DNA of 63,836 bases, filler included, from Rhizaria sp. SCN 62-66 (lineage: Eukaryota), in NCBI GenBank assembly GCA_001724265.1. It is 5 parts of 5 records of this genome, joined end to end, with 100 filler letters (N's around TTAATTAATTAA, not from the genome) between each part and the next. Parts side by side here need not be neighbours in the genome. Positions count along the whole stretch, not along the records: positions 40,439 to 53,278 come from MEDY01000530.1; 4 more parts are not named here. One strand, written 5' to 3'. Position 1 is the first letter of the stretch, and the number at the start of each line of letters is the position of its first letter. The translations under genes were made by a program, and so were the position numbers. This document shows positions 4,161 through 53,378 of this stretch, piece by piece. A model generated the notes under the pieces. It worked only from the letters and a program-made list of their open reading frames with translations. It did not search any database and had not been told where the DNA came from.

Positions 4161-5643
4161 TGATTTGGTGTTGCATTAAAAAAATATTAAACCGTGTTAC
4201 ATTAGCGTTTATGGGTGATATTTGACTACCCTTTTGTACTTTTATTATGATGACGACTTCAGGCAACATTGTTGATCCTGATTCTCATCACTACCTTGTA
4301 AGCAAGGACAATACAGTGTGACTGACTTGGTCGCGCTCCTCTTAAGACAATTCAAGACGCACTGAAAGAAAAAACATCTCCTTCAACATCTCCTTTAATA
4401 AAAGCTCATAGGCGACAATTATGCATTTAATACGTACGTACTGTACTTGTATTCATTTGTTGTCACGGGCTAAGTAGTTACGTGCGGTGTTTGTCCCCGG
4501 AATTGGTTCGAGAGCATAACTATGAGTGTATTGATGCATGATTACATGAGAAATCGCGAAGTGACAACAATCTAGACATGAGATATCAAACTTAGCGTAG
4601 AACAGAAGGCTGGGGCCTAATTGACAACCTAACAGTATGTTTTGCTGCAAAAGCGGGTAGATATTGGGACAGGACTAATAGTACGGCTGCGACAGCGGCC
4701 AGCGTGCTTAGGTAACAAGCACGCGAAAGATAATGATTTGTAGAACAACAATGACGACAACCAACAACCAAAAAAAAAGACAGCGAAAAGTAGAGTGTAA
4801 CACAAAAAGTGAAACACTATAGAACACGGAATACGCATCTCACACTCGTGAACATAGCCACACCCGACTTACATTTTAAGCAGTTGGCACTTGTACATGT
4901 AAGATGTAAGTACTGCCGAGCACAGTATGAAATGAGAATGTCGCTGTCACACAGGTGATCTCATGGTTAATCGAAGAAACAGAACGTTTGAATAAAAAAA
5001 GATGAGAGCGACAAAAAAGAGGAGCAATGAAAACAAAACAAAGTAGGTGTGAAGGGGCATTCGATGTACAACGCCGTGCAACATACGGGCAGGAAAAACG
5101 TGAAATGGGCACATTGGGGCGAACTAGTCGCATGCTCGGATCAAGAGTAGTCGAAAATAAAAGCAAGAGCAACCATCGTGTTACTCCACTCTCTATTAGA
5201 GATGGGTGTAGTTGTACACAGAAGATGCACTTGTGTGGCATTAGCACATAGCACACACTCGTCGCTAGGCAGCGAGAATAGAAATGCAGGGACATACTAC
5301 TAGCGTGACGAAAACAAGAAAACTGAAACACATTGACAGCATTGGATGATAGTAATAACACTAACAAAGGAGAATGCAAGTGCGCAAGCTAAGAATAAAC
5401 ACCGAGAAACCTTCTAAAAACACACAAACACATCCATACATTCATCGATACGCACAACACAGAGACGCACATTTGAACCTAAAAAGATGATACAATGAAC
5501 CAGAATCAGAAACTAATATGAACAAGACAGAAACCATGAGGAAGAGAAAACAAAAACAAAAACAAAAAAGATATTGGATAATACAAAGACGTGACTGAAG
5601 CAAAGTCCTGAGACGTGTTCGAAGTGCTGTGCTGGCTTCTGTC

Positions 5644-8600
5644 TTACTCGTTGTGTTCGTGGTCAGCGACGTCCTCGGCCACGACCTCGTCGCCGCCGTC
5701 GAGCCCGGCGGCGCCGTTGCTGGGCAACGCGGCGGGGCTCTCGCGCGCGCTCAACGGGGCGGGCTCGTCCATGCCGCGCTCCGACAGCGACGCGCGCGCC
5801 GCGGACACACTGGCAGGGCGGGACGCCGTCGCGGGGCGGCTGTACTCCGGACTGTGGGACGCGACGGGCACGGCGTCGACGTCCTCGCTGACGACGGCGT
5901 CGTTATGGTCATGCTGGTCGGCGCCAGGAGCGCTCTCGTGTGCGTCCGCGTCGTGCGCGTCCGCGTTGTGGCTGTCGGCGTTGCCTCCGTCGTCGTCGTG
6001 ACCGTAGCCAGGGCCGCCCGCGGCGACCGCCGCGCCGGCGCCGAGCCCGGCGGCCGCGCCGTAGCCGGCGTACTCGCCGCCGTGCGGCGCAGCGCTCTCG
6101 TGCGCGTCAGGGTAGGGCGCGGGGGCAACCTCAATGACTTGCGCCGACTGCGGCTGCCCGTAGCCGTGCTCGCCGCCGAAGTTCTGGTTCTCGGCGTAGT
6201 CGGCGTGCGTCGGCTCGTCGGGCGCGTACTGCGGCTCCTCGTAGGCTGGCGCGGGGCCCGGCTTGGCGTAGTGGTCGTCGCCGGGCGCGTTGGCCGCGTT
6301 GGGGTCGGCGCCGTACTCATCGTTGTCGCCGTGGTTCGCAGTGAGCACCATGCCCGCGCCCGCACCCGCAGCGGCGCCGGCGGCAATGCCGAGGCCCATG
6401 GGAGCGGCGCGCGAAGGGCCACCGTAGTCGTTGTTCTCGTAGTCGTTGTTCTTATGGACCATCTCGATGCCATCTTCGGCGTTGGGGTCGTACTGCTGCT
6501 GGGGTTTGACGGAAACGATGGCGCGCTCGTAGGCGGGGTCCGACACGTTCATACCGGCGTTGTTGTCGCCCTACGCAAAGAAGAAAAAAAAAAAAAGAGG
6601 AAGATTGAAAGAGAAAGCAATGAAAATTTAGCATGATACAAAAAAAAAATAGCAAATTTGGTTAAGACATGGAATATTGTTTGAAAGTGAAATGATTGTG
6701 ACAAATATGAAACGTACATGAATTCCCTCAGTGAAGGCCTCCTCGGGGACGACGACGCCTGACGAGATCTCCGCGGGCGTGGGGAGCTTGGAGAACTTGA
6801 GGCTGTGGCGTTCAAACATCTTGCCCCACAGGTAGGGGTTGAAGCGTTTGCGGCCGAGCAGGGCGGCGGGGACGGCGCAAATGAGCGTGGACCACATGAT
6901 GAGGTACCAACCGGCGATCATCCAGTACAGGGACGAGAACGTGGTGCAGCAAACGGAGTCGACGACCTTGAGGTACGAGCGCGAGAGCGAGCGGCAGCCG
7001 GCAATAGCCTCGGCGCCGTCGACGAAGGTGCCGAGCGAGCCCTTGGCGTTGGTGGCGAACGCGCGCACGACGGGCTGGAGCTTGGGTCCCATGCGGCCGA
7101 AGACGTTGTTGTCGGGGTCGTCGAGCTTCTCGATGATGTAAGTGTTGGGTAGGTCCGTGACCTGGGTGTGGATCTGCTTCCAGACGTCGATGATAGCCGA
7201 GTCGGTGCCGCACGACGTCTTAGCGAGGTCGTTGACGACGCGGGGGATGTTGACGGTGACGTTCTGCGAGTTGGAGATCTTAAAGAAACACTGCTCCTGG
7301 GTGCCAGAGCCGCCGAACTGGCTGCACGCGTCGCCGCTAGTGAACTCCTGCACGAACGAGTTGGCGGACTGGCACGTGTCACCGAATGCCAGCATGACGG
7401 GCCAGAAAAGCGCGCCGACAATCAGGAAGCCTAGCACGGTGTTCATGAACATGAGGCACAGCGAGCAGTTGGCGCAGTGCGTAGAGCAGTTGCCGCAGAA
7501 GCGCGTCTTGCAGAGCCAGCCGAGCAGCGATGCGAGCAGCAGCGTGAGCACCATAAAAGCCGGGAAGATGAAGGACAGCGAGAAGATCTGCGTGTAGGTC
7601 AGCGGCACTGGTGCCATGTCGGTGATGTCGCCGATCTGCGCGCTCTCGACCCAGTTGATCTCGTTGCTGAGGCACTTCTGCGTATAGCACTTTTCGCCGT
7701 CAGGGTACGAGTTGCCCTGCGCGTCTTCGCTGTAGCGGTACGCCAGCGGGGAGTCACCCGCGAGCTGCGACATGTCGGCCACAGACAAGAGGTAGTAGAC
7801 CGCGCCGTGCGCGACCGCGGCCTTGTTGTCGACGCGGTTGATCACGTCGACGATGTCGTCGACGTCGGACGCGAGGTTGACGTTGATCGTGAAGAGCGAC
7901 TGCGCGTCGTCAATACAGTCGCCGAAGGTGTCGACGGAAGCGACAAGCTGGCGCGTGGCCTCACCGAGGCCCTGCTGCAGGTACACGTCCCACAGCTTCG
8001 CCTTGCCCATGTCGGCGTACAGGTTCGGCAGGCAGACGTCGAGCGAGTCGAGCAGGCTGTCGAAGTCGGTGAGCGTGCCGAGCACCTCAGACCTGATGTC
8101 GTCCACCTGGCCCGAGACGTCGTCGATGTCTGACTGGATGTCGACGCCCTTGATGGCGTCGAACGTCGCCTCCAGGATCTCGATGCGCGCCTGCGTGACG
8201 CCGGGGCTGAAGTTGTTGATGCGGCCGATGAAGGCCTCCGCGCCCTCGATGTTGGTGATCACAGGGGCCAGCGAGGAGAGTCCGGTCACCATGTTGCCCG
8301 TCCTCGTCTTGATCTGCGTCGCCGCGTCCGCCGCGAACACGCCCGTGTCGGCCGTGGCTGAGGACGCGAGCGTGGAGATGGCCGCTGTGCGGTCAATCGA
8401 GACCCAGCGGTAGGTGCTCTCCATCGCCGTCAGCTCCGTCGCCGTGTAGCCCGTGTAGCCGCATGTGGCCCCGGTCGAGACGCCGTCGCACACGGTGTCT
8501 TCGGTGCACGTCGTGGTCGGGGACACCGGCTGGCGCGAGGTGGGGTCGAAGCAAATCGCCACGGCCTGGCACACGCCGGCTCCGATGTCCGTGCAGTCGT

Positions 8601-11048
8601 CCGTGGTGGTGCAGGTGGTGATGGACGAGAACTCGCACACGCCCTGCGTGTGGCCCGCCAGAGACGTGCCCAGCGCGTCGACGTCGGCAACGGACTGCGA
8701 GGTTGCGGGCACCCACGACGCCGCCGAGGCCCACGCCGCAGCCACGGGGGTAAGCTGCGTGATCATGTTGTTCACCAGCGTGCGCGCGGCCGCGATCGGC
8801 GCCGTGTTGGCGCCCGCAACGGCGGTGGCAAGGTCGCCAGACGTCTGGATGAGGTAGTCCATGAAGGCCGCGAAATCAGCCTCGTCTTGCGGGGAGATGT
8901 CGTGGTTGTCCTTGTAGTTGGTCAGCGCAGTGGCCACGCCGTCAAAGCTGGCGATGCCGAGGACCGCGGTGATGTTGTCGGCGCGGCCCTGCTGCTCGGC
9001 CAGCACCGTGTCGAACTGGTTGAACGAGTTCTTCATGTTGGTCATGGTGCTCTGCGCGTCGTCGACGACGCTGCCCAGCGCGATGAGCGTCTGGTTGAAC
9101 TGCACGATCTGGGTCATGATGTCATCGCCGCAAGTCGTGATCGCGTTCGCGTTGGTCGAGAAGGCCTGCACGTCGGGCCCGATCAGCGGCGCGGCGCGCA
9201 CGGGCGCCAGCGCAGTGTGCAAGTTCGTCGCAGCGGTCGCCGCAGTGCCCAGCAGGGCCTCAAGGTCAGTATGAGTGTCAAAAACGGACTTGGTGAGCGG
9301 GAGCGCGGCCTTAAGGTCGTCTGCGAGCGTGGCGTCGAACGCGGTCTGTGTCGTCGAGGCGGGCGTCACAGCGCCGAGCGCGAACGCGGCCTCGATGGCC
9401 TTCTTGATCGGGGCGAGGACGTCGTTGAGCACCGAGTTGCCGTTGTTGGCGCTAAAATCGGGTGGCACACCCGTCTCCCACATCGGCTTGAGCTCGGTGG
9501 CGCGCGCGGTGAAGTCGGTGGCCCACTTCTGCGCGGTCGCCAGCGGCGGCGCGTAGCTGGACAGGTTGCTCTGCGCGTCGATCAGACCGCGGAAGGCGGC
9601 GTTGCCGCCCGCGCGGCCCGTGGCGAGGTTGGTCGGGCCCACGGGCTGCGTGGTCCAGTCCTTGATGCTGGCCTGGAAGGTGGCCATCGACATACTCGAT
9701 GACGACTGCGCAGCGGCAGCCAGGGTGTCGGCCTCGTCGACCGCCTGGTCGAGAGGGTAGTAGTTGACCGTGGCGGCCTGCTGCAGCGAGGCATCGCCAA
9801 TAAAGACGGTGCGCCAGCTGGCATAGGGCGTGACAATGTCGGTGCCTAGCTTAACCGAGATCTCGTCCATGGTGTCCTTGAGGGTGGTCATATAGGGTTT
9901 GGCGTCTTCGTAGGCGTCATTCCACGCAGTGAGCGAGGCCGCGGTCGAGGTAGGCACGGTGAGCTCGTTGAGGTTGGCCTCAATGCAGTCGAGCGAGGAG
10001 CGCACGAGCGGCATGTCGACGTTGTCGTAGATGGTCTTGTTGACAGTCTTAAGCGTGTTGACGACCTCGACGTTGAGGTCCGCCGTCATCAGGTTCGCCG
10101 TAGGGGTCACCATGCCGTACGCCATCGAGGCCGCCGATGCGGGCGACTTGACCACGGACTTTAGCGCGGGCGCGACGGCATAGACGCCGCCCGCCGCAGC
10201 CGCGATCATGAAGCCCGTGAGCACAGCGATAGAGATCCAGGCCAGGATGCGCGCCGTCCAGCGCTCCCAGGCCGGGTACGCAAAGCCGCCCTCGGCGTCC
10301 GTGTCGCGCACGTAGCCCCAGCAGCCGCAGCAGCACGTCGTGTCGCCGGTAACCTTGTACGCGTTGAGGTTCTTGATCGAGGGCGCCGAGTAGCAGCAGC
10401 AGCCGCAGCCGTTGCCATAGCCGCAGCAGCAGCAGCAGTAGCGGCAGGCGCAGAAGATCAGGAAGAAAATGAGCGTGCCCAGGAAAAAGGCGAGGCCAAA
10501 GAAGACGTACATCGAGATGGACTGGAGGTAGACGACCGAGGAGTCGGGCGGCGCGCCCGTCTTGATCACGTCGCCGAAGGAAGGCGTCGTGAACGCGCAG
10601 GTGAGGTTGGTGCACGTCAGGAGGTCATATGCGGCGAGGTCGCTCGAAACCTGGGGTGGGAATAAAGCAGGAAAGGACGCAAAATGGAGAGTGGGTCAGA
10701 ATGCCACAGAAATAAAGAGAAATCGCGACGGTTTAGAAGGGAGGATGCGAGTTAAGTTAGTGTCAGTTGAATGGCGGTCCTAGGCGAAGAGCGCGGTCAG
10801 GCGAGACGTAGAGGGAGATTTCCAATGGAGTGTTGTGATAGCAACAAGAAACGTACTTTAGCACCGCTATAATCAATGCGTGGCAAAGTCGAGACATCAA
10901 TAAACGAGTCGTGGGTGGTTGTGCAGGTCTTGCACTGGGGCGAAGTACCAGAAGGCTCGCATGTATCCGCGGCCGCCGCGAACGGCAAGGCTGCAGTGCT
11001 CATGAGAGCGAGAAAAAATGCGAGCAGAAAAGTATGAAGAGCCCCCAT
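5644..11048 (-). CDS. Prominin/tweety-like 5-TM glycoprotein, ~1683 aa; complement(join(5644..6570,6718..10650,10857..11048))
   Basis: Signal peptide MGALHTFLLAFFLALMSTAALPFAAAA. TM1 is followed by a Cys cluster (CACRYCCCCC), then TM2, a very long helical ectodomain, TM3/TM4 followed by DTC, a second loop, TM5 and an acidic tail. Two phase-0 GTACGT...YAG introns link three ORFs. Stop TAA. The family call rests on architecture only. Confidence 0.7.
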
Positions 11049-12925: not shown

Positions 12926-13025
12926 NNNNNNNNNNNNNNNNNNNNNNNNNNNNNNNNNNNNNNNNNNNNTTAATTAATTAANNNNNNNNNNNNNNNNNNN
13001 NNNNNNNNNNNNNNNNNNNNNNNNN
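12926..13025. other. Artificial contig spacer
   Basis: 44 N + TTAATTAATTAA (stops in all six frames) + 44 N. Confidence 0.98.
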
Positions 13026-27320: not shown

Positions 27321-27420
27321 NNNNNNNNNNNNNNNNNNNNNNNNNNNNNNNNNNNNNNNNNNNNTTAATTAATTAANNNNNNNNNNNNNNNNNNNNNNNN
27401 NNNNNNNNNNNNNNNNNNNN
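27321..27420. other. Artificial contig spacer
   Basis: N44-TTAATTAATTAA-N44. Confidence 0.98.
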
Positions 27421-40338: not shown

Positions 40339-40438
40339 NNNNNNNNNNNNNNNNNNNNNNNNNNNNNNNNNNNNNNNNNNNNTTAATTAATTAANNNNNN
40401 NNNNNNNNNNNNNNNNNNNNNNNNNNNNNNNNNNNNNN
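40339..40438. other. Artificial contig spacer
   Basis: N44-TTAATTAATTAA-N44. Confidence 0.98.
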
Positions 40439-40695
40439 ATGACGTCACTGAGTTTTATTCGTGTGAGTTGTGATGACTTAAGCGATAGCTCATTTTTTTG
40501 TTCGTGTGAGTTATAGTCCGCTCCCCCCCATACTACTTTATAAACCACCATCCAAAAAAAGCCACGAATAACACAGCGCTTAGCGGGTGCCTGCGACTGT
40601 GACTACTGCTTGAATCCCCGCGCAGACTCGCGAGCAGCCGTGAGAGAGGTTTTTTTTAAAGCAACAAACACTTAACTAGTAAAGCGATAACCGCT

Positions 40696-43600
40696 TTAAG
40701 CGACGAGAGCGGCGATGAGGGCCGCACAGTCAGCCGCTGCGGCGACACCCGTAGCGGGCTCGCGCGTCGTCACACTCTGTGCAATCCAGTCCACGGCCTT
40801 AACGGCGGGCGTGGCCTGCGACTCGCCGGAGAAGAACGACGACGACATGAGCACCGAGCTCAGCGCGCTGCGGACGTCAGCGGTCTCAAGCACCGAAGTG
40901 CCCGCCATCGTGGTGAACGTGCCGACCTGCGCCGCCGACGCGCCCGCGGCAGTGCTGAGCGCGGCGTCGCGGAGCCCGATCTGCGTGCACACACTGGCGA
41001 GAAGGAGCCCGGAGCCGAGCGTGCGGGCCGAGGACGGGATGAAGCCCGTCTCCGTCAGTGCCGTCGCGTCGTCGTCGAGCCAGGCCTGGGGGACGAGCAG
41101 CCCGATGGGAGTGACCATGTTCTGCAGCGGCGTCGCCACGGTGCGCGTGGCCGCTGTGATCACGGCCGTGTCGGCGGTCTGGATAGCGCGCGTCATCGCC
41201 TGCAGACGCGCGTAGGGGAACAACACGTTAGTCCGCAATACAGTGAAGTCCGTGGTGTACTGCGCCGCGATGGCGCCCAGCGCGGCCTCGACGGTGAAGG
41301 TCGCCGGGTCGATCGGCGCGGCGAGGCCGGCGACGCCGACCGGCATCGCGGGCGACGACGCAAGGCCCCACAGGTTCGCGTGGTCGCCGGCCGCGGTGGC
41401 GAAGATGTTGTTGAAGAAGGTCGTGGTGTCCGGCGAAGCCGTGGTGAGGGAGGGCGTCAGTGTGGCGGCCGGCGTGAAGGTGGCGAGCGAAGTACCGACG
41501 TCGACGAGGTTGATGCCGTCGTCACCGAGGTAGAACACGTGAGCGACGCCGTCATACGCCGCACGGAGCTGCGCAGACCACAGGGCCGCGCCCCACGCGC
41601 CCGCGGCCGTGCCCGCAGCGACGACGCTCGTGTCCGCCGGCGTCGTCGCAGGGGTCGCGGTGGGGACGTAGGCCTGTTGAGTCAGCCAGTCAAACGCGGC
41701 CTTGACGTTGTTGCCGCCGAAGTGATTGATGGTCTGGCCCGCGTTGTACACGCGGGTCTCGGCGCCCCAGTGCGCGTCAGCAGAGCACAGAGGGACGTAG
41801 ACGTGCAAGTAGTTCTTGAACGGGTTCGGGTTCTCCGCCGCCGTGGCGAACTGGGCGTCGTTGTAGCCGTTCTTCTGGAACACACCGGTGAAGTTGCGGT
41901 AGCGGATGCTCGCGCGGTCCGTATCGACCGTGACGGCGTACTGCACTGTGGGCAGCGCAGAGTCGCAGGTGCCGGCGTTGAAGCACACGCCGTCGGTGCC
42001 ACCGAGCTGGAACAGCACGTTGCGCGCGTCGTTGGTGCCGGCAGGCGGGATGTAGACGAAATAGCTGAAGGCGTCGCCGCGCGCGCAACCGGTGTTGGCG
42101 GTGGCGGCGTCGGGCACGATCTCAACCCAGCGGTTCGTGGGCAGCTCAGACAGCAGCGGCGCGCCGGCAAAGACCGTGAGCGCGGGGTAGAGGTCGTCGG
42201 AGCTGGAGCCACTGTTGACAATGAGGGCGATGACGATGATGACGACGAGGAGGATAACGACCCAGAGGAGGACGAAGAGGAACCGCTGGCAGCAAGACCA
42301 CTTACGCCACGTGCGGCGGAACGAGCCGCAGCAGCGCTTGGACTTGACAAGCAGCTCACGGCGCAAGTACTCCTTGATTACAGTCTCCTGCTCCTGGGCC
42401 ATTTCGGCGGAGACGGCCTCGTAGACGGCGTCGTCAGCGTCAGTCTCAGCGTCGCCACCGTTGTTGCCGTTGCCTTTGTTGCCGCCCATCTGAGTCATCT
42501 CGACAGCGCCCGCGTCGCCGTCGGCGACGGTGTTGTGTGCCGAACCGGCGTGCGGTGTGACGCGGGCCGGATGCTGACCCGGCGGGCTCGCAGAGCCAGC
42601 GCCAGCGCCAGCACCATCAGTGGCGGCAGCAGCAGCAGCCGAGGCGGGGTGCGTGGGATCGTTGAGTACGATGCCGGCGGCGGTGGCAGCGGCGCCGATG
42701 GCGTCCGTGGTGAGGTAGAGCCCCGCCGCGCGCGCAGCCGTCCACTCGGCCTGCTTGGCGGGGGTGCCGCGGGCCAGTGCGGTGTAACGATTACGCTCAA
42801 ATCCAAGCTTGATGCGCTCCAGGTGGTCAGATACGAGCTTGATCTCCTCGAGTTGGACGAGCTCGAGCGCGAGCGCTTCGGGGGAGTTGTCGACCTCGAC
42901 CACAGCGGCGTCCTCGATGACGGGGTTGTAGCCGGGGTCGGTGAGGCGCTTGGCCTGGATGTCGTGGATCTCGGCCAGCCGGACGAGTGCCTTGGAGAGC
43001 TCGGTGCCGATCTGGGAGGAGACGCCAAAGCGCGAGTCCGTGTGGTCTTCGCCCAGTGAACCGACGGTCATGAACACCTCCTCGAGTGTCGTCAGCGACG
43101 TCTGGATGTCGGTGACGCCCAGGCGCTCAGACTCGGCCTCGAGGGAGGCGAAGAAGTTGGCCAGGAGACGCGACGCGGCGCGGGGCACCTTGAAGCGGAC
43201 GACAGAAGCTTCGACGGACTCGACGATGGCGCCCGGAATCGCCTGCTTGACGTACGCCGTCACGCCCTTGATGCGCGCGCGACGCTCCTCATCAGCGGCC
43301 TGCCCGTCGACGAAGACCGAGACACGGTAGCCTGTGCCGAACTTGTTCTTGAGACGGATCGAGGTGCCGAGGCAGATGAGCTTACCTTCCTTCATGATGC
43401 CGATGCGGTCGCCGAGGACGTCGGCCTCCTCCATCGAGTGCGTCGTGAGCACAGTCACACGGTCGTACTTAACCTTCTCGATCAGGTCCCAGACCTAATG
43501 GTTTCAGAAATTAGAAGAGTGAATACGAAAAATGATTATGGTGATATAAATAAATATGTTGACGAATAATATTCATGTTCAACTTCTTATTACGTAGATA

Positions 43601-46488
43601 TATATATGTGAATATTGATAGATTTATCGTACCTGGCGAGCGGCGACGTGGTCCATGCCCGTAGTGGGCTCATCAAGATACACGATCGCGGGGTTACCAA
43701 TCAGCGCGATCGCGACAGAGAGACGGCGCTTCATACCACCGGAGAAGGTCCCCGCAGCGACACCGGCGTACTTGGTCAGGTCGACGTCAGCGAGGCGCTC
43801 AGCGACTTCGAGGTGCATGCGTTCGGTGGGCACGTTCTTAAACGCGGCAAACAGCTCCAAATGCTCTGCGGCGGTGAGTTCGCGGAAAAGCACGTCATGC
43901 TGAGGGCACACGCCCATGCGCTTCTTGATCTCGTGCATGCCGTTGACGACGGAGTAGCCGAGAACGCGTGCGTCGCCGGACGTCGGACCTAAGAGGCCAG
44001 TCATCATCGAGATCGTCGTCGACTTGCCGGCACCGCTGTAAATGACAAAAGCAGAAAAGAATCGATCAAGATAAATTTCGATGCTTTAGAAAAATTACGC
44101 TCGATAAATGCGCATACAATGCCATAAATAATGACAGATACATAATTTAAGAGATGCTATTCCAATTCAAGCGAGATATCTCAAGTTAAGTAGATGACGT
44201 ACTTATGGCCGAGAAGGCAGAAAAGCGAGTTCTTATCAAGAATGAGGTTAATCTCCTTGACAGCCTGAAAATCGCGCTCGGGTTGGCGGATGCAGCAGCA
44301 CGTGCGCGCGTAGTAAGTCTTCCCAAGCTGATCAATGCGCACCGGGTAGTTGACGTCGAGTGTGTTGCGCACGCGCTCGCCCTCAGCGAGAACGTCGGGG
44401 TCTTCGCCCATCTGCGTCGCCTTGATCTGCGCAGCGATGGCGGCCGCGTCGTCCTCCTGCGCATGCTCATCACCGTCGTCGCCGTCGTTGTCAGCGGCGG
44501 GAGAATTTGCGCCGTCGGGAGAGTTAGAAGAGGCCGGGTCAGAGCCAGCAGCCGCCACCCCACTGGCGTCCGTGCCGTCGGTGTTCTTGGCACGCTTGTT
44601 GCCAGAGTCGGGCTCGATAGAGCCGAGGACGCGGACGTCGTTGGGGCACCAATAGGACGGCTTGAAACAGAAGAAGCACGACTGCGACATGCCGTTCTCA
44701 TCAGGCAGCACAACATCGAGGTAAATACCGATGACGAGGAAGATGAGGGCGTCAAGCAGCAGTAGCAAGCAGACTTCAGAGACGGACATAAAACCGTCGT
44801 TACGCTGAGCCCACGTCATGCCGTTGAGGTAGTCACTGGACGCATAGAAGCCGATCGTGTCCATCGACTTGGCAAGCAGCGACCAGGGCTGAATAATGAA
44901 AAAGACACGGATACCGATCGAAACGGTGTCCTTAAGCACAAGCGAGCCTGCGGCCTGGACGAGCATGCCGATAAGGAACATGGCGAAACCGAGAATGGTG
45001 CCGGTGCGGGCCTTGGAGACGAAGTTAGACAGGAGGAACACAAGGGTCACAAGGGACAGACCAAAGCAGAAAAAGAGTAAAAAGTACACAAAAAAGTTTG
45101 TCTTCAAAAAGAACTTAAATTGGAAGGCTGATCCGACTGCAATCAGCAGGAGAGCTGAGAGGGTGTTCAGGATGGTGTTGGTAATAAAGTACGAAACCCA
45201 GTATGCCGATACTGACAGACCCATTTGGTGCATAGAGGTACGCAAATGAAGCTCGCGTTCGCCAACAATTTGATTGAGTTGCATCACGATGTTGAACATG
45301 AGAACGCCGAAAAAGAAAATTGACCCATAGCTGAGGTCAAAAACATCATCAGAAAACGGGGCAAAAATCAAAAATGATCAGGGTGAGCATATAGGAAACA
45401 TAGCTTCAGAAAATATATTCGTAGAGTAAACGCTAAGATTATTTAAGAGATCTACGGTGTGTGATGAATCAATAAAATTGCAGTGAAAAAATGTCGTACC
45501 TGCCAACGGCGTCAGTGGGGGAGATGGACGGATGCGGATAGGGCAGCATATCAAAATTGAAGCTGAAATCAGCAGCTGGAGTGGCTGCCAGGTCGTTGGC
45601 GAGTGACAGCACGGCCTATCAGCGCACAGTAACAGTGACAGTGATGAAGAGCAGGGAGCAAGCAGGGAGCCAAATGAAGCAGTATGTGAGGTTGGAGTTA
45701 GGATATAGAAACACATATCACAAATACGAACTATTTTGCATGTAAAATTGCCTAGGTGCACAAATGCAGGTTCGTATGCTGTCACAAACAGTAAAATGAA
45801 CTGTTTAATCACACACTACTCACACGCCACGTACCTGATTGACTGCACTGGTATAAGGGATGAGGACCTGATACTGTGAGTCCACAAACGTCGTGCGGAA
45901 GCGGTCACGCGTCTGGTTATATTGCACAACATAGGAGATCGACTGTAAATTCGCGAGTGAGGGCGTTGCGGGATCAGAGTAACCAATCTCAAAGTGCAGT
46001 GCACCCTGTGTGCTGTTACGGTTCTTGAAGGCGTAGTCGTTGAACGCTTCCTGAGTAGCGAACGCCTGAGTCTTAGTGATGCCGTTCTGTGACTTGATCT
46101 TGTCGATGATGGCCTCCACCACGGGGTCGTTCTCCGGTGTGTAGGCGACTGTAATACACGTGTACGAGTCCGGAGGCAACGGGTTGCCCAGGTGGTTGAC
46201 TCGCACGCACTCCTGGAGCAGTCCGACGTCGAGGGGTGAGGGCGAGAGGTCGCCATTGGTGATCTCCTTGTTGCTCGGGTTTGACCGGATGCCGATGTCG
46301 ACAAGGAAGAGCAACAGCACGAGAATCACGGGCACGAGCAGTTGCACGATGGAGGACCGTGGGGACCGAGCAAGAGTGAGAAAGTTCTTGCGGAGCATGA
46401 CACGGAGCTGGCGAAACCAGAGAGCAACGGCACCGCTAGAGCCCGCCATGTGGACCTCGGAACCCGGGCCGGGATGCGCGGCGGACAT
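40696..46488 (-). CDS. Half-size ABCA transporter fused to an extra TM and a pectinacetylesterase/Notum-like domain, ~1699 aa; complement(join(40696..43494,43633..44035,44203..45330,45500..45615,45835..46488))
   Basis: ABCA N-terminus QLRVMLRKNF, ERELHLRTSMHQMGLSVSAYW, Walker A GHNGAGKS (formed across the splice), GVCPQHD, FSGGMKRRLS, LDEPTTG, TTHSMEEA and TLEEVF. Four GTACG...YAG introns give 5100 nt in frame. Stop TAA. Confidence 0.92.
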
Positions 46489-47514
46489 GACGCGGACGAG
46501 CTGGAGCGGGAACGGGGCGTGGAGGTGTCTCAAGGAGGGACCGCGAGGGGGGTTCTGTGGGAGCAAGGCGGAGGCAGCGGAGAGCAGAAAACGAAAGTCG
46601 ATGAGTCAAAAAAGCGCGGAGTAGATATAAAAAACCGCGTTCTATCGGACAAATACCGTTAAAATTCTCCGGGCACTGTTGCGGAAAAGATATCCGTGCG
46701 TTTGAGGATCATCGAAAAGACGGTTCGTCGCGAGGTCCAGCGGGGCATCAAATACGAGTTAAATATATCTAATTGTTATTCAACGTGCATACTATTACAA
46801 AAAAATACAAGCCAGAAATTGTTCTCAAAGAACATCATGCACCATCCATGTTGCAATGAGCATACGATGACAAAAACTCATTTTATCATTTCTTCTCGGT
46901 GGCCTCGAGCGCGACGCTTTGAACGTTTTATTTTGTGGTTGTGGCTGTGGCTGGTGTGAGCGAGTTCGCAAAAAATGCTTTGTCGCCTTGTCCGTCAACG
47001 AAGTGAACACGGTCAACTCGGGCGACGGGGATCTTAGAGGATCCATCCTGCTCGTGGGGGGGACAAAACCGATATGTGGGAAATTGTACTTATGGCCCCG
47101 ATGCCACTATACGCGTTGATATCTGTGGCTTTCTTGTGTGAATGAGATACACGCCGTGATATGTTATCCGGAGTCCTCGATCCGGGGTGGTTGAACAACG
47201 CCTTTGAGAGATTCCAAGCGTCTTCTTATGTGCTTTTCTACGTTCATTGACATTTGTCATTCAACCATACGATAGAAAACGACATATTGTCACATGTAAC
47301 ACTCCTTAAGATGCGCTTTGCTGCCTGATCCACGCAGGCATTTTCCTTTTTGAGCCGCACAGTCTCAAACTCCCTCGCCCCCATGTCGTCTTTTCAACCT
47401 CCCTCGGGTCAGTGCCACACATCTAGCCGCTCATCTCACCACACGTAATATTCTTTTCTCCACTTTTTGATCTCTGCACCCTTGCTCTTTGCCCCCTCCT
47501 CCCCCTCACAACAG

Positions 47515-50500
47515 ATGCAGATTCTGCATCGCCTGGCCTTGGGCAGCTTGCTGCTCTTGGCAGCCTTCCTCGGCTCCGCGACGGCTGCCGACCCAGCTCC
47601 CTTTGAGTCTTCCACCCACGCGTCGCTACCTAACATCCCGATTCTGCCCGTTGCGTCCGGCTACGCGTTTAGCACGCTCACGCTCGACTGCTCGCCTGCG
47701 CTGGCCGCGGTTGATGACGCCTTTTACCTGTTTGATTCGACCACTGCTGGCTACACGGCTGCTGTACCCGATGTCAGCGAGAGCGAGGCTGTGTCGGGCT
47801 GGACCCGTTATACTTTCCACATTGGCACTCAGGTATGGACATCGTTCGCTGTGTCGCTCTCACATTCACTGCCTCGCATCTCGATGCCGATTTGAGTGTG
47901 TGAATACTTGACTCGAGTCATTGACTTTACTTGTTGTGTATCGAGACCATCCAATTCGATTATTGCATATGTCTAACCTTTTCTTCCGTCGTTCGCTGTT
48001 GTTTATTCTGCGCACTCTTTCTTCTTCCTCTTCTCAACAACGTACTTTAGGACGGTCTCATCATCCTGCACCGTGAGAACCTCAGCTGCGTCCAGTACTC
48101 TGCCACCGACGCCGCCGTCGTCGCCTTCTCTGGCGCCATCCCGCATACCCCCGCGGCGTACGACATCGTCATCGAGGAAGTCGACACGCGCACCCGCATT
48201 GTCGTGCGCCCCACCGGCGCGCTTCCCTTCATCTCAAAGGCGGACTCTTTCACCGTAACCGTCGTCCCCACCGTCCCGGGCGCTGCGTACCTCCCTGCCG
48301 CGTCCTGCGGCACCCAGTTCGTCGCTGACTCGGCCGTCAAGATCACCCCCGCCGCGCACGCCCTCAACACGGTCTCGTTCTCGGCCGCCGCTGACGCCGA
48401 TGCCTCGGCTCCCATCGTCTTCTACTGCGCCGCTCGCGCGGACTCGGCCGTCGTCAAGGCCGCCGCGTCAACCGCGGTGACCACGGTCACCGTCGGCGAT
48501 CAGGACGTCGTCACGACGTTCATCCTCGGCAACACCGCCTCTTCCCCGGTTCGCTTTGCGTACCTCCCCGCCTCTGCACTCACTACTGTCACCACCGCTG
48601 CCGGCGACATGGCCGTTTCTCTCCCCACGCCTCTGCGTGGCTCCGTCGGCTTCACCCTCGCCTCCCGCGCCACCGCCGGCGGCGTCCCGGCCCGTCTGGC
48701 CTGGGTCAAGGCCAGCGGCGCCGTCTCCTCCCCCGTCGCCCTCAGCTTCACGTCCAATTTGCCCGCGTCGTCGTTGATGATCGCCACTCTGACCGCGCCC
48801 TCCGACGCCGTCGCCTTCACGCTGCTCGCGCATACCATCGCGCCCTTTTTCGTCTACAACCTCGGCCTCTCGCAGGCGTACAGCGCGGTTGAGGGCTCTG
48901 CCGCGCTCGAGAGCACGTACGTGCCGCACTACGACGTCGTCATCGCCAATAGCTCGTACATCCGGATCGCGGTCAAGCACGATAACAAGTGCGTCGCCGA
49001 CCAGTCCACCGAGTTTTCGTTCTCTGATTCTACGCACGTCAGCGTTCTCGCTGCCCAGACGAGCTGCAAGCTGTACGCCGACGGCGCGCTCATCTCCGGT
49101 TTTTTCCCTGTCAACTATGGCGCCAATATTGCGCTCACACTTACGCTGCCCTTCGCCGCTTACGCGTCGTGCCCTTCTCTGCTCGAGGTCTCCTGTGGCG
49201 CCACTGCGGCCTTTGCCGCCAACGGCGTCGCGGCGGGCACTGTTTCGCTCGTCCTCAACGGCGTCTCCGTTGTCACCGCGACTTCGTGGAATATGACCAA
49301 CTTTGACACCGCTGAGCTGACGTTCCGATCGTACTTCAACAAGGCCCTCTCGCGCTCGTTCGTGCCTGAGCTGTCGACCGCGGCCGAGATCGAGACCGCC
49401 ACCGACGCGCTCGGCGGTTACTCCGTCGTGTCGTTGCCGTATACCCTCGCCGTCAGCGCTGCCAGCACCAACACTTTTTCGGTCCAGAGCGTTACCTCGC
49501 CGGTCAAGATCTACGGTGAGTACCCGGTCATCAAGCTCGTGTGCAGCAATGATAACGCCGCTGGCACCGCGCCCGCGCTGAGCCTTGTCGGTATTGTCAA
49601 TGCGGACGGAACGGATATGGAGGTGATCTCTCCCGAGTGGACCATGGCGGCCAACGGCCTTGACTCGAGTGCCACTTTCGTGGTCGGACAGGTACGACTA
49701 ATTAACGCAATTGAATCACATGTTCATATAATTATTTGAATAACCTTTCTAGCTATTTATTATTTTATTTTAAAGTTGAGATTCATCCATCGTACTCACT
49801 TACATCTCCTTTTATATTATTTCTCCTGTTTTTACTACTGCACTGTCATGTAGGCCTCTGGTCTCGTGTTCCTGACGCACTTCAGCGACGCCGACTGCGC
49901 CATCCTGCCCTCGTCGCAGCCCGACTACGTCGGTGTCGCCCTGGCGTACATCACCAGCACTCCTCACCTGCCTCTGCGCCTCGCGGTCACCCTCGCCGGC
50001 ACGACCCCTTCGGCCGCCGCGACCACGCTCACGGTCACCCCGCTCGACCGTTTCACCGTGCTCGACCCTTATGTGCGGTTCTCGATCCCCTTCCTCACCA
50101 AGGTCTCCGCCGCCGCCCCCGCCATTTCCTCCGACCTGCTTAAGTCCGATGCCACCGCCGCCCACGCCGCCTTCGACCTGGGCTTCAAGTCCGCTTTCGT
50201 GGTTGCCCAGCAGGCCCCCAACGGCGTCCTGACCGTCGGCACCAGCTCGTTCGCGCTCGCGTCGACCGCTAACACGCGTCTGCGTCTCATCGTGACGGTG
50301 GACTCGGTCACCGCCGCCAACGTCGGCCTCGAAGACTCTGCCCTCGGCGGCGACATTACGTTCTCGTACTCGATGCTGCCGCAGCGCGCGAACCTGCTAC
50401 CTCTGCGCCAGAGCATCTACAACTGGGTGCTTTCCTATGAGCTCGACACGCTCGTTCGCGGCGCCTTCCCCGTCTTTACCGTGAACCTCAACTACAACGC

Positions 50501-53278
50501 TGCTGGCGTCATCTCGGACGTCAACAACAATGTGCGTGTTCCGGGACAGATCCAGTTCTCGTTCCCGATGGGCGACGCCAACTCGCTGCTGCGCTTCGAG
50601 GCCGGACTCCCCGTCTACTGCGAGTCGCCCCAGGGCATCGTGTGCTCGGTCAACACGGCCACCGGCGTCGTGTCGCTCGGCCAGAACTTCCCTTCCCTGC
50701 CCATCGGCGCCGAGAGCTCTGAGCAGGAGATCGCTCGTTTCCGCAACTACCAGGTCCGTCTCTTCGGCGCGCGCCTCGCCGGCACCGCCTTCACGCTCAC
50801 CCCGGGCTCCGCGCTGCCCCCCGTCGCGGCTGACATCGGCGTGGCCCTGTCCGCGCCCTCCGCGGCAACCGCAGGCGCGCAGTCGCCTCTCGCCGTGGAC
50901 CGCGATTCCCACCCCGTCCCCGTCTACGTGCTCCCCGCGGCCGCCGTCAACATGGGCTCCACCCTGGCGCTCATCTGCCCCCACAGCGACGACCTGACGA
51001 CCGCCGGTGTCGTCCTCTACGACGGCGCATTCGCCACCAAGCCTGTTGCCGTCGAGACCAACACTGAGCTGTCGTCGCTCTTCCCGGGCTCTGCCATCGC
51101 CGTCACGTTCGTCGACCTTGCGTCTGCCAAGGCCTTCGCGCTGTTCACGCACCGCCAGCAGACGTGCCTGGCGCGCTTCCTCCGCTCTAGAGCGGACTTC
51201 GTCACCGACGACTCGTCGGCTGCGTTCCCGCTGTTTACCGTGCAGCACCTCCAGTCGGCCACCATCACTGTTGCCAACGCCGCCGCTGCTACTGCCCCCG
51301 CGCCCGCGGGCGACACCGACGCCCCCGCGAAGCCCGTTCTGGCGATGTCCGCGCCTGTCGCGACTGAGACCGTGACCGTGACAGTGTCCCCGCAGTTCAG
51401 CTACACGTTCTTCTCCCGCGGTGACTCTTTCACTCTCTCCGGCCCCTTCTTCGTCCACGCCCCCGTCATCTGCGCCGCTGTCGGTTCTTCCGCCCGCATC
51501 GGCGTCACCGCTGCCGTGACCAACGATGCCGGCCTCCGCATCGAGCTCGGTTCCAACACTTTCCCCGGCGAGGCCTTCGCTGTCGCGTGCACTGGCGTCT
51601 CCGTCGCTGCCGCCCACAACAACAACAACAACGCTGTTGTTCCAGTCGCGGGTGTGTTTGCGCCTGTCGCCGGCACCAAGCTGTCCTTCACGGTCCGCTC
51701 CCACGCGTCCTCGCTCTTCACCCTCAATACCGTCGCCCTGTTGCCGTATGCCGCCCCTGTGCCCGTGCTGCCCGCGTCAACCTTCGCCCTCACGCTCGCG
51801 ACTCCGTACGCCGACACCGAGACCGAGGTTTTGCTGCAGCTCACCGCGCTGCCCGGCAAGCTTGTCGCGGGCGACCGCGTGACCGTTGCATTCCCCGCCG
51901 CCGTCTACGTCCCCATCCTCCCCACCCAGGGCTCGGTCGCCTGCTCCACCGTGAACGCGGGCGCTGAGGTCGCGCTCACGGTCACCAAGGCTGGCGAGGC
52001 CCAGTTCGCCGTCGTCGCGGGTGTCGTCGCCAAGGACGCCACACTCACTTGCGGTCCCGTTCGCACTGCGCCTGGCGTGTACTCCGGCCTGGACGCCGCC
52101 GCGCCCGTCGCGGCCGTCACGGTCCGCGGCCTCGTCAACGGAAAGTACGTCCATATTCTCTGTTTCGCAAATTAAGGCTAAACTATGTTTACATTTCATT
52201 AATTAAACTATTTTTCCTGCTCTTTTACTCACTTATTGACTTTTTTGTGTGTTTTATTACCGCTCAATTCGCTCTGTTTAGGCTTTCGACCCGCGCTACC
52301 GCCGCTGGCGTCGCCCTTCCCGCCCTGACTCTGCTGCCTGACGCGCTCGAGCTCAGCTCCGCCTCCATTGCCCCCGCCACGGGCTCCGTGTTCATCGCCG
52401 GCAAGCAGGACGAGACCCTGCTCGTGACCCTCCCCGCGCTGCCCGTCGCGCTCCCCGCCGGCGCTGAGATCGCCGTCACCGCTGCTTTGCTCCGTGACGC
52501 CGACATCGCGTGCGCTGTCCTCGGCGACTTTGCGACCGCTTTCCCGGCCGTCAAGGTCGACGGAAGCACCGGCAAGGTCTCCGCGAGCGCGATCACCGCT
52601 GTCCCCGCCTCCGCCAAGGCGATCGTCATCCGCTGCGAGAACGTTGACATCCCCAGCAAGTTCGCCGCCGCCTCCGCCGCCGCGGGCTCGTTTGCGGTCA
52701 CCGCGACGGCGTCGCTGGCCCCGCGCCAGTACGTCCTGGCCAAGGGCGCTGTCTCCGCCGCCGCCATCCGCGGCTCCGGCTCCGTCAGCTCGTCTTTCTC
52801 GGCGGCCGCTGTCGGCGAGGCTGGCAAGATGAAGTTCCTCTTCTCGGACATGGCTGTGTTCAACTACAAGTCCTGGCTCTGGGGCTCGCTGTTTGACGGC
52901 TACAAGATCGAGAAGCTGCCCAACATGGAGCTTGAGTTCGAGGTCGCGCTGCCCGCGACTGTCAAGCCCCTCGCGTCCGGCTTCAGCTGCGTCATGGATC
53001 CTTACTCCATCCAGCTCCCTGGCGTCACTGTCTCCCTTGCCTCTGTCAACGTCGCGGCCAATACCTTCCGCTTTAAGACCGTCGGCCCCATTGACGGCGA
53101 CGGCCTCGCTGTCGTCTGCGCCAACCTTGTCGCTGCCGCCTCCGCGCCTCACGTCGCCGCCCCCGTTGTCACTGCCTATGTCGCCGGCGTCGCCGAGCCC
53201 ATCTTCCAGGCTGTCCACTCTGGCCGCGCCACCTACGCCCCCTTCGCCCCCGTCGGTGCTGCCGAGGTTGCTGCGTCG
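47515..53278 (+). CDS. Large secreted/surface Ala-Val-Thr-Ser-rich protein, 3'-partial, >1749 aa; join(47515..47832,48051..49691,49854..52144,52282..>53278)
   Basis: Signal peptide MQILHRLALGSLLLLAAFLGSATAA. Three phase-compatible introns. Beta-strand-like alternating pattern with spaced Cys pairs. Strong GC3 bias. No family recognised. Confidence 0.82.
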
Positions 53279-53378
53279 NNNNNNNNNNNNNNNNNNNNNN
53301 NNNNNNNNNNNNNNNNNNNNNNTTAATTAATTAANNNNNNNNNNNNNNNNNNNNNNNNNNNNNNNNNNNNNNNNNNNN
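53279..53378. other. Artificial contig spacer
   Basis: N44-TTAATTAATTAA-N44. Confidence 0.98.

Follow-up and report, generated by a model that had tools for sequence, protein, structure and literature searches.

A stretch of 63,836 nucleotides from Rhizaria sp. SCN 62-66 (GCA_001724265.1), analysed here as a whole and referred to as the window, contains on its minus strand a gene encoding an ABCA half-transporter that continues in one reading frame into a C-terminal domain predicted to have the pectinacetylesterase (PAE)/Notum fold. Both parts are connected by a cytosolic segment and a seventh transmembrane (TM) helix, and the C-terminal domain shows neither the serine nor the histidine that form the catalytic site of its family. 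The fusion is genuine and conserved, as it occurs in at least five proteins. New is the architecture; the proteins were already contained in public sequence sets and went unnoticed there.

The gene is located on the contig that makes up positions 40439-53278 of the window (MEDY01000530.1), and its structure was established by tblastn with the full-length relative P0004 and by reading of the splice sites. It spans 46488-40696 and is composed of five exons and four introns (Table 1). The spliced coding sequence of 5,100 nt (1,699 codons) has no internal stop and the product is 60% identical to P0004 across 1,681 columns. All introns start with GT and end with AG, are 138-219 nt in length and have a GC content of 0.25-0.42, compared with 0.625 for the coding sequence. 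A spliced joint at 45614/45834 (cut +1, GT..AG on the minus strand), removing exactly intron 1, was found in one contig each of the sequencing runs X5, a cDNA library flagged as probably DNA, and X12, a polyA-RNA run. It is a single real eukaryotic gene on the minus strand, and the organism, an intron-bearing microbial eukaryote, is seen in bioreactor and wastewater metagenomes.

The transporter half is classified by its sequence as an ordinary ABCA half-transporter encompassing TM1, an extracellular domain, TM2-TM6, a nucleotide-binding domain (NBD) and a putative R1-like domain, an identity that was proposed in the initial annotation and is borne out by Pfam and by the relatives of P0004 in the PDB. 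ABC2_membrane_3 (PF12698) was matched on exon 3 at about 44721-45329 (E 5.8e-16) and ABC_tran (PF00005) on exon 4 (E 1.7e-22). Reading of the sequence showed that Walker A (GHNGAGKST, spanning intron 3), the signature (SGGMKRR), Walker B (VYLDEPTTGMD) and the H-loop (TTHSMEEA) are all intact. In the orthologue P0004 TM1 covers residues 47-65 and the next TM helix is found at residue 253, resulting in a big loop between TM1 and TM2. The closest solved relatives of P0004 are ABCA3 (5e-148) and ABCA1, ABCA4 and ABCA7 (1e-112 to 1e-124), with ABCB proteins at 1e-35. The match of the R1-like domain to PF23321 is sub-threshold, as are the R1 matches of P0005 and P0007. Variants from a related strain in run X4 (43333, 43360, 43363, 43372 and 43384) are all located at third codon positions of exon 5, a pattern as expected under purifying selection; these lie directly behind the NBD, at and beside the R1-like domain, and not in the Notum-like domain. 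Run X4 also contains contigs that are 90-95% alike.

As described in the initial annotation, the last exon runs on without interruption from the NBD to the stop, the frame measuring 932 codons from stop to stop (40696-43494). An exhaustive phmmer search with the ectodomain revealed 398 relatives at E<=1e-3, of which 44 reach E<=1e-10 and two E<=1e-30; as the further analysis covered the best 150 of the 398, all counts of fused forms are lower bounds. The Pfam scan covered 19 long proteins, i.e., 18 long phmmer relatives and P0004. Four of these, P0004 (1,626 aa), P0005 (1,759 aa), P0007 (1,385 aa, N-terminally cut, with the cluster mate P0154 of 1,670 aa) and P0028 (1,358 aa), possess ABC2_membrane_3/ABC_tran followed by the C-terminal Notum-like domain, with PAE reported by Pfam for P0005 and P0028. 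P0017 and P0068 showed PAE only, P0120 PAE and Abhydrolase_1, P0138 PAE and amine oxidase, and the other eleven are RND-type transporters treated below. The ABCA architecture is therefore present in at least four other database proteins, which are 23-53% identical in the domain. The fused relatives originate from JGI/IMG, NCBI, ENA and Logan, and their names are absent or generic (ABC ATPase, RND exporter). An alignment of four ABCA-fused ectodomains with identities of 23-53% (A2) contains 58 invariant columns, including five Cys. A scan of metagenome contigs returned four loci. One of them, L001, encodes P0154 as a single uninterrupted open reading frame (ORF) at 4383-9392 of a 148-kb contig with 100% identity over 1,670 residues, and its ectodomain is 23% identical to that of the window; at L002-L004 a PAE-like domain is encoded, and neither ABC nor SSD (sterol-sensing domain) matches lie close to it. 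Divergently oriented beside the P0154 gene, at L001:14-1654 (-), a second ABCA-type gene was observed that is 32-33% identical to P0004 and P0154 and whose product might form a heterodimer with the fused protein; the contig of the window gene (40439-53278) contains no second ABCA gene.

It is exceedingly improbable that the fusion is an artefact of a chimeric metagenome assembly or of two adjacent genes read as one. Such an origin could be suspected as the window was put together from several metagenome contigs, as the linker is of low complexity and the X4 assembly breaks there into overlapping pieces, and as the junction is spanned by no single RNA contig. The junction is located, however, inside one stop-free exon, and the same domain order is found in four other proteins from other sources, one of them the single ORF on the 148-kb contig. 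In four of 14 sequencing runs, 50% or more of the words sampled from 41900-43700 were present; three of these four may be the source sample. X4, which originates from an independent study, has depth in 30 of 30 bins of 40445-46700, and its pieces 42176-42626 and 42589-43414 cover the TM helix and the linker and overlap within the linker, with zero and two other letters, respectively. These overlapping pieces together with the depth make a chimeric join very unlikely, and the region 42300-43100, which the initial annotation had singled out for a check with reads, is covered by the X4 contigs with no chimeric join indicated. The further statement of the initial annotation, that no such ABCA architecture is known, stands in that no paper describing an ABCA-PAE/Notum fusion was found in the full-text literature, with subscription journals and domain-architecture databases outside this scope; it does not stand as a claim of uniqueness, in view of the database proteins listed above. 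Longer fused relatives were not found by a word-indexed search, and a search seeded with the P0004 ectodomain retrieved nothing beyond P0004 and the ORF of the window itself; both are only weak indications of rarity, as distant fused forms did emerge from the exhaustive phmmer search.

The assignment of the C-terminal domain to the PAE/Notum fold is supported at several levels. In the minus-strand translation of 40696-43458 the 506-residue domain carries CARGD..FSYFV, QLGGTDGVCFN, NPNPFKNYLHVYVPLCSADAHWG, HFGGNN and LGDDG, so that all elements quoted in the initial annotation are present and in the order given there. With a 544-aa query PF03283 (pectinacetylesterase) was matched at profile positions 12-188 of 355 (E 2.4e-6, 27.4 bits at a cut-off of 26.6). 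A profile of alignment A1 matched human and Drosophila Notum with E 1e-18, thereby aligning tGcSaGayG to AGSSAGGTG and lgDsg to LADSG. A1 has 144 rows, comprising 143 of the 150 listed relatives and the window ectodomain; omitted were the window's own ORF P0003, the fragments shorter than 130 aa P0087, P0101 and P0108, and the proteins P0068, P0083, P0120 and P0138. In a language-model atlas the top three clusters are all PAE (score 0.78), which is a lead only. AlphaFold2 (AF2) with A1 as input resulted in a model with a predicted local distance difference test (pLDDT) of 71 and a predicted template modelling score (pTM) of 0.78; the rows listed by Foldseek for this model against the PDB are all Notum with E down to 2.8e-7. 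VIA re-alignment with Drosophila Notum yielded a Z of 27.2 and a root-mean-square deviation of 3.6 A for 326 of 349 residues, covering model residues 20-495, and the listed rows, again all Notum, range from Z 24.6 to 27.2. AF2 on the single ectodomain sequence was uninformative (pLDDT 34), and phmmer with the ectodomain alone against the PDB sequences returned no Notum and only chance matches (E 0.05-0.36). According to the predicted model, the whole region of about 500 residues, beyond the part matched by Pfam, would constitute one Notum-fold domain with insertions. The initial annotation had proposed this fold, to be checked by a PF03283 search and by AlphaFold and Foldseek, and the Pfam match, the A1 profile and the predicted model all agree on it; the Pfam score on its own is borderline, but taken together the evidence for family membership is clear. 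Regarding the features defining PF03283/Notum, the profile, the fold and the Asp are present and the Ser and the His are absent; the domain is most suitably grouped with the PAE/Notum fold as a member without catalytic activity rather than as an esterase.

In plant PAEs the catalytic triad lies in GCSxG, an Asp motif and HCQ (PMC5465549), and in Notum it is formed by Ser232, Asp340 and His389, with the oxyanion hole built by Gly126-Gly127-Trp128 and Ser232-Ala233 (PMC8172013). In the window protein the nucleophile is replaced by Ala in G-T-A-A-G and the oxyanion loop reads GGTDG in place of the family GGGAC, both changes having been noted in the initial annotation. Its term 'catalytically dead' turned out to apply even more strongly than claimed, because the His is lost as well. 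The nucleophile column of A1 contains Ser in 125 of the 144 rows and is gapped in three; the remaining 16 rows show other residues (G 9, D 3, A 2, H 1, R 1), and none of the five ABCA-fused rows has Ser (window A, P0004 G, P0005 G, P0007 G, P0028 D). The Asp column (D 130, gap 13, K 1) is kept in five of five fused rows, and the His column (H 116, gap 22, S 4, Q 2) shows H in none of them. A1 places an aliphatic residue next to a conserved Cys at the His position (V401-C402) and an earlier 37-row alignment places S447 there, neither being His. The window ectodomain has no His past residue 271, and in the four fused ectodomains none of the columns past the Asp has His in more than one. Loss of both Ser and His predicts that esterase activity is absent, and the domain is classed, from these replacements, as a pseudo-esterase that would be incapable of acting as a Ser-His-Asp hydrolase. 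That it still hydrolyses substrates by a non-canonical nucleophile or by a residue provided in trans is very unlikely: the Asp and most structural motifs are kept and P0005 has a Ser one position earlier (G-S-G-V-G), but across the five proteins neither the elbow nor its neighbouring positions retain a common Ser, Cys or Thr (GTAAG, GTGAG, GSGVG, AAGDS, GGDFG), no His is conserved and the oxyanion loop has an insertion. P0009, P0023, P0036, P0045, P0125, P0034, P0015 and P0035 are further family members lacking Ser at the nucleophile position, which indicates that catalysis was lost more than once in the PAE/Notum family; some of them may be fragments of fused proteins.

As the NBD is cytosolic and one more TM helix follows, the Notum-like domain is predicted to lie outside the cell or in a lumen. 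A helix equivalent to the seventh TM helix is found in four of four fused relatives; it is strongly hydrophobic and located 20-35 residues ahead of the Notum-like domain. In all five fused proteins K/R number 5-8 per 25 residues before the TM helix vs 0-3 after it, and each of the five ectodomains has exactly six Cys, with five Cys columns invariant in A2. An extracellular or luminal location, as already suggested by the initial annotation, would fit this charge bias, the six Cys and an N-x-T sequon. The hydrophobic C-terminus (AALIAALVA) was considered as a glycosylphosphatidylinositol (GPI)-anchor signal and rejected, since a conserved Cys is only nine residues from the end and relatives are without such a tail. 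Contigs of X5 and X11 join 42251 to 42942, i.e., the TM region to the segment just past R1, with 30 other letters replacing about 690 nt, which suggests relatives with a far shorter linker such as P0028.

The design is not restricted to ABCA transporters. Eleven of the 19 long proteins (P0010, P0011, P0032, P0037, P0046, P0069, P0075, P0083, P0107, P0022 and P0077) combine Patched/SSD/MMPL domains of the resistance-nodulation-division (RND) type with a C-terminal PAE domain, and these have an extra hydrophobic helix 30-60 residues before it. Nine of the twelve SSD-type rows keep GCSAG, GDSG and HC (P0046, P0107 and P0077 lack the Ser), and the SSD-fused PAE domains that retain the triad are probably active esterases. 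A quick maximum-likelihood tree of 56 rows and 363 columns, with the Shimodaira-Hasegawa-like approximate likelihood-ratio test (SH-aLRT) as its only support measure, was calculated from the window, four ABCA-fused domains, eleven SSD-labelled domains and forty stand-alone relatives picked by length and coverage; the only basis for counting P0017 as SSD was the TM helices upstream of its domain, P0077 is not included and P0154 stands in for P0007. The SSD-fused domains form one clade (SH-aLRT 98). The window, P0004, P0005 and P0154 form another (96), which P0006 joins at 91 and the long-branched P0028 at 81, where P0006 is a 397-aa ORF on a 1.4-kb contig and possibly a fragment. From these separate clades the Notum-fold domain appears to have become attached to ABCA and to RND transporters on separate occasions; one origin for all five ABCA forms is possible but not firm. 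Such Patched-like transporters fused to a Notum-like esterase do not seem to have been described before and could prove more interesting than the ABCA case. P0083 (2,357 aa) continues after its SSD-PAE part with 2H phosphoesterase, RNA ligase and AAA_33 and probably represents two neighbouring genes merged by the gene caller.

In the mechanism proposed, an ABCA half-transporter with intact ATPase motifs is covalently tied via the linker and the seventh helix to a Notum-fold domain predicted to face outward, which would sit beside the transporter's own extracellular domain and receive, hold or sense the lipid of the pump or an esterified surface molecule. It was described that the Notum fold has a large hydrophobic acyl pocket beside the active site (PMC8172013). 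Given this pocket and the attachment of the same fold to a second, unrelated class of lipid transporters, a binding module is the most economical reading, and it is tentatively put forward, as plausible by analogy, that the Notum-like domain acts as a non-catalytic ligand-binding module accepting, holding or sensing lipid cargo. A complex prediction of the ABCA extracellular loop of P0004 with the Notum-like domain, in which the alignment was unused, gave a score of 0.00 and weighs neither way on docking.

A role unrelated to lipid, such as binding of glycan, matrix or a partner, dimerisation of the half-transporter or extracellular sensing to gate the pump, is rated as rather unlikely although it deserves serious consideration. 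The evidence on conservation and topology fits it equally well, half-transporters need to dimerise and dead cholinesterase-fold domains act as adhesion modules in animals. Plant family members bind acetylated pectin (PMC5465549) and sulfate sites of Notum are implicated in glypican binding (PMC8172013). Such a role leaves unexplained, however, why Notum-fold domains were separately attached to two unrelated classes of lipid transporters, ABCA and Patched/SSD RND, and no glycan-binding or dimer interface was identified.

Several observations weigh against a structured lipid-binding module at the end of a real fusion protein. The PF03283 match is borderline, the 920- and 932-aa queries scoring 25.8-25.9 bits, just below the cut-off of 26.6, and for P0004 and P0007 Pfam gave no PAE match at E<=1e-3, so that their membership in the family rests on phmmer and alignments. 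In the AF2 model 128 of 498 residues, mostly in the C-terminal half, have a pLDDT below 50, with insertions at 229-268, 340-385 and 430-443. The ectodomain diverges faster than the ABC core, with 53% vs 62-68% identity to P0004. The characterised plant PAEs act on acetylated polysaccharide and not on lipid (PMC5465549), leaving the analogy with Notum as the sole source of the lipid ligand. At the level of RNA, no contig of the runs compared with the gene bridges the NBD and the Notum-like domain, and an X12 polyA-RNA contig (43954-44116) enters intron 3, so that cover in this library can be unspliced RNA or DNA. Contigs of X12 without differences cover 40689-40871, 41063-41330, 41420-41780, including the Ala codon, and 42092-42279, at the TM helix; in X5, X11 and X12 some portions of the gene remain uncovered. 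It is likely that the NBD and the Notum-like domain are encoded on a single transcript. The X12 joints 42245/42591 and 43917/44016 were rejected as introns, having sides of only 22-24 letters and non-intron ends, and are regarded as cross-matches from relatives or repeats.

The fast divergence and the long low-confidence insertions would also suit a decaying, functionless relic of a once active esterase carried by the transporter, as would the loss of Ser and His with replacements at the Ser position that differ among the members (A, G, G, G, D). This is improbable, though, as all five lineages, which diverge down to 23% identity, have retained 392-506 residues of open frame beyond the TM helix along with the same six Cys, the Asp, the core motifs and an N-x-T sequon; in a relic, truncation or loss would be expected in some lineages.

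Beyond the binding module favoured here, a wider and considerably more doubtful proposal is that Notum-fold domains, each with one added TM helix, were recruited independently to the outer face of ABCA and of Patched/SSD RND transporters, which would constitute a eukaryotic system, so far undescribed, of esterases and pseudo-esterases tethered to transporters and acting on esterified or acylated lipids at the surface of the membrane. Therein, the ABCA branch would provide the pump's own lipid acceptor in cis, comparable to apolipoproteins or the tunnel of the ABCA ectodomain in animals. If true, Patched-like transporters would have been paired with Notum-like deacylases before, and independently of, the rise of Hedgehog and Wnt signalling in animals.

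Table 1. Features of the ABCA-Notum-like gene and its product, with positions in the window listed from the start codon to the stop codon.
Feature	Position	Strand	Description and evidence
Exon 1	45835..46488	-	Start ATG, TM1, most of ABCA extracellular domain; tblastn P0004 residues 17-216 on 46443-45835; end read from sequence
Intron 1	45616..45834	-	219 nt, GT..AG; GC 0.42; spliced joint 45614/45834 in X5 and X12
Exon 2	45500..45615	-	Last part of extracellular domain; tblastn P0004 residues 217-256; splice sites from sequence
Intron 2	45331..45499	-	169 nt, GT..AG
Exon 3	44203..45330	-	TM2-TM6 and NBD start up to LGHN; tblastn 65% identity to P0004; donor site read
Intron 3	44036..44202	-	167 nt, GT..AG
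Exon 4	43633..44035	-	NBD core; PF00005 E 1.7e-22 and motifs read
Intron 4	43495..43632	-	138 nt, GT..AG
Exon 5	40696..43494	-	932 codons and stop, single open frame; NBD H-loop to end of Notum-like domain
R1-like regulatory domain, ABCA1-type	43108..43338	-	PF23321 E 3.4e-5, 24.3 bits at a cut-off of 27 (sub-threshold)
Cytosolic segment	42346..43107	-	Part conserved in fused relatives, then Ala/Gly-rich low-complexity linker, then conserved pre-membrane helix; translation and consensus of alignment A3
Basic/Cys juxtamembrane stretch KSKRCCGSFRRTWRKWSCCQR	42283..42345	-	8 K/R among 25 residues before TM
Seventh TM helix FLFVLLWVVILLVVIIVIALIV	42217..42282	-	Kyte-Doolittle mean 3.78
Predicted exoplasmic Notum/PAE-fold pseudo-esterase domain	40699..42216	-	506 residues; modelled from 42192
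Altered oxyanion loop G-G-T-D-G	41989..42003	-	One extra residue; family consensus GGGAC; Notum GGW
N-x-T sequon	41887..41895	-	N100, T102 and G103 invariant in A2 (four ABCA-fused ectodomains)
Ala196 at nucleophile position	41605..41607	-	Codon; G-T-A-A-G vs family G-C-S-A-G
Asp224, triad acid kept	41521..41523	-	LGDDG; family LGDSG; Notum LADSG
Val401-Cys402 beside family His-Cys motif	40987..40992	-	A1: His replaced, Cys kept

The remaining sequence around the gene yielded few further features. The window contains N runs at 12926-13025, 27321-27420, 40339-40438 and 53279-53378, consisting of paired 44-N runs around a ttaattaattaa linker; it is thus a set of separate metagenome contigs joined by N spacers, and neighbours across the joins are not physically linked. 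Opposite the coding exon an antisense open frame of 799 codons is present on the + strand at 40660-43059, which was rejected as a gene since all homology is on the minus strand and such a frame is a usual by-product of GC-rich coding sequence. Beside the ABCA gene, + strand 47449-53278 contains very long Ala/Thr/Val/Ser-rich frames at 48051-49739, 49854-52175 and 51968-53278 that may belong to a large repetitive surface protein; four large Ala/Thr/Val-rich ORFs adjoining the gene had no Pfam match at E<=0.01. At the contig end (40445-40653) the contig depths in run X4 sum to 371, compared with about 6 across the gene, and several runs show loose ends at 40538-40541; this end has the appearance of a repeat that also occurs elsewhere or in other organisms. 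An Rfam scan of the window gave nothing at gathering scores.

How ABCA exporters pass their lipid to an acceptor is still debated, and a natural ABCA protein fused to a predicted outward-facing domain descended from an acyl-binding esterase would offer a simple self-contained model for this hand-off. The ABCA-fused domains would add a clear case of a pseudoenzyme reused as binding module. Through the parallel SSD fusions, whose Notum-like domains are mostly predicted to be active, two families familiar from morphogen signals in animals, Notum and Patched/Dispatched, come together in microbial eukaryotes in a common context of lipid handling. In current annotation, the fused proteins are unnamed or labelled only as generic ABC ATPase or RND exporter.

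Compared with known systems, human and Drosophila Notum (4UZK, 4UYU) share with the window domain the α/β-hydrolase fold over nearly its whole length, the order of motifs, the aligned Asp and, by prediction, the extracellular location. The identity is only about 13-16%, Ser232 is replaced by Ala, no equivalent of His389 exists and the oxyanion loop is changed; furthermore, Notum is secreted, whereas the window domain is membrane-tethered and transporter-fused. Like the plant pectin acetylesterases (CE13, PF03283), the window domain matches this Pfam family, and the N-terminal Cys-containing motifs of the plant enzymes and the positions of their GCSxG and Asp motifs (PMC5465549) have counterparts in it. 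In contrast to these enzymes, the window protein has neither the GCSxG serine nor the HCQ histidine, is no independent secreted enzyme and matches the profile at positions 12-188 of 355 only. With ABCA1, ABCA3, ABCA4, ABCA7 and the half-size ABCAs it has in common the transmembrane domain with the large TM1-TM2 loop, the intact NBD and, at the level of a sub-threshold match, the R1-like domain, to which it adds, after this putative regulatory domain, the seventh TM helix and a predicted exoplasmic pseudo-esterase of about 500 residues. The Patched/SSD RND-PAE proteins (P0010, P0011, P0032, P0037, P0069, P0075 and others) follow the same design of a lipid-transporter body, an extra helix and a C-terminal Notum/PAE domain, but belong to an unrelated transporter superfamily and a separate PAE clade and mostly keep the catalytic residues. 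Finally, neuroligin-type cholinesterase-like domains and the GID1 receptor are α/β-hydrolase folds without catalysis that are used for binding. The likeness to these would lie in the use of a dead esterase fold as binding module, and it is at the level of the fold only, as they belong to another branch of the superfamily.

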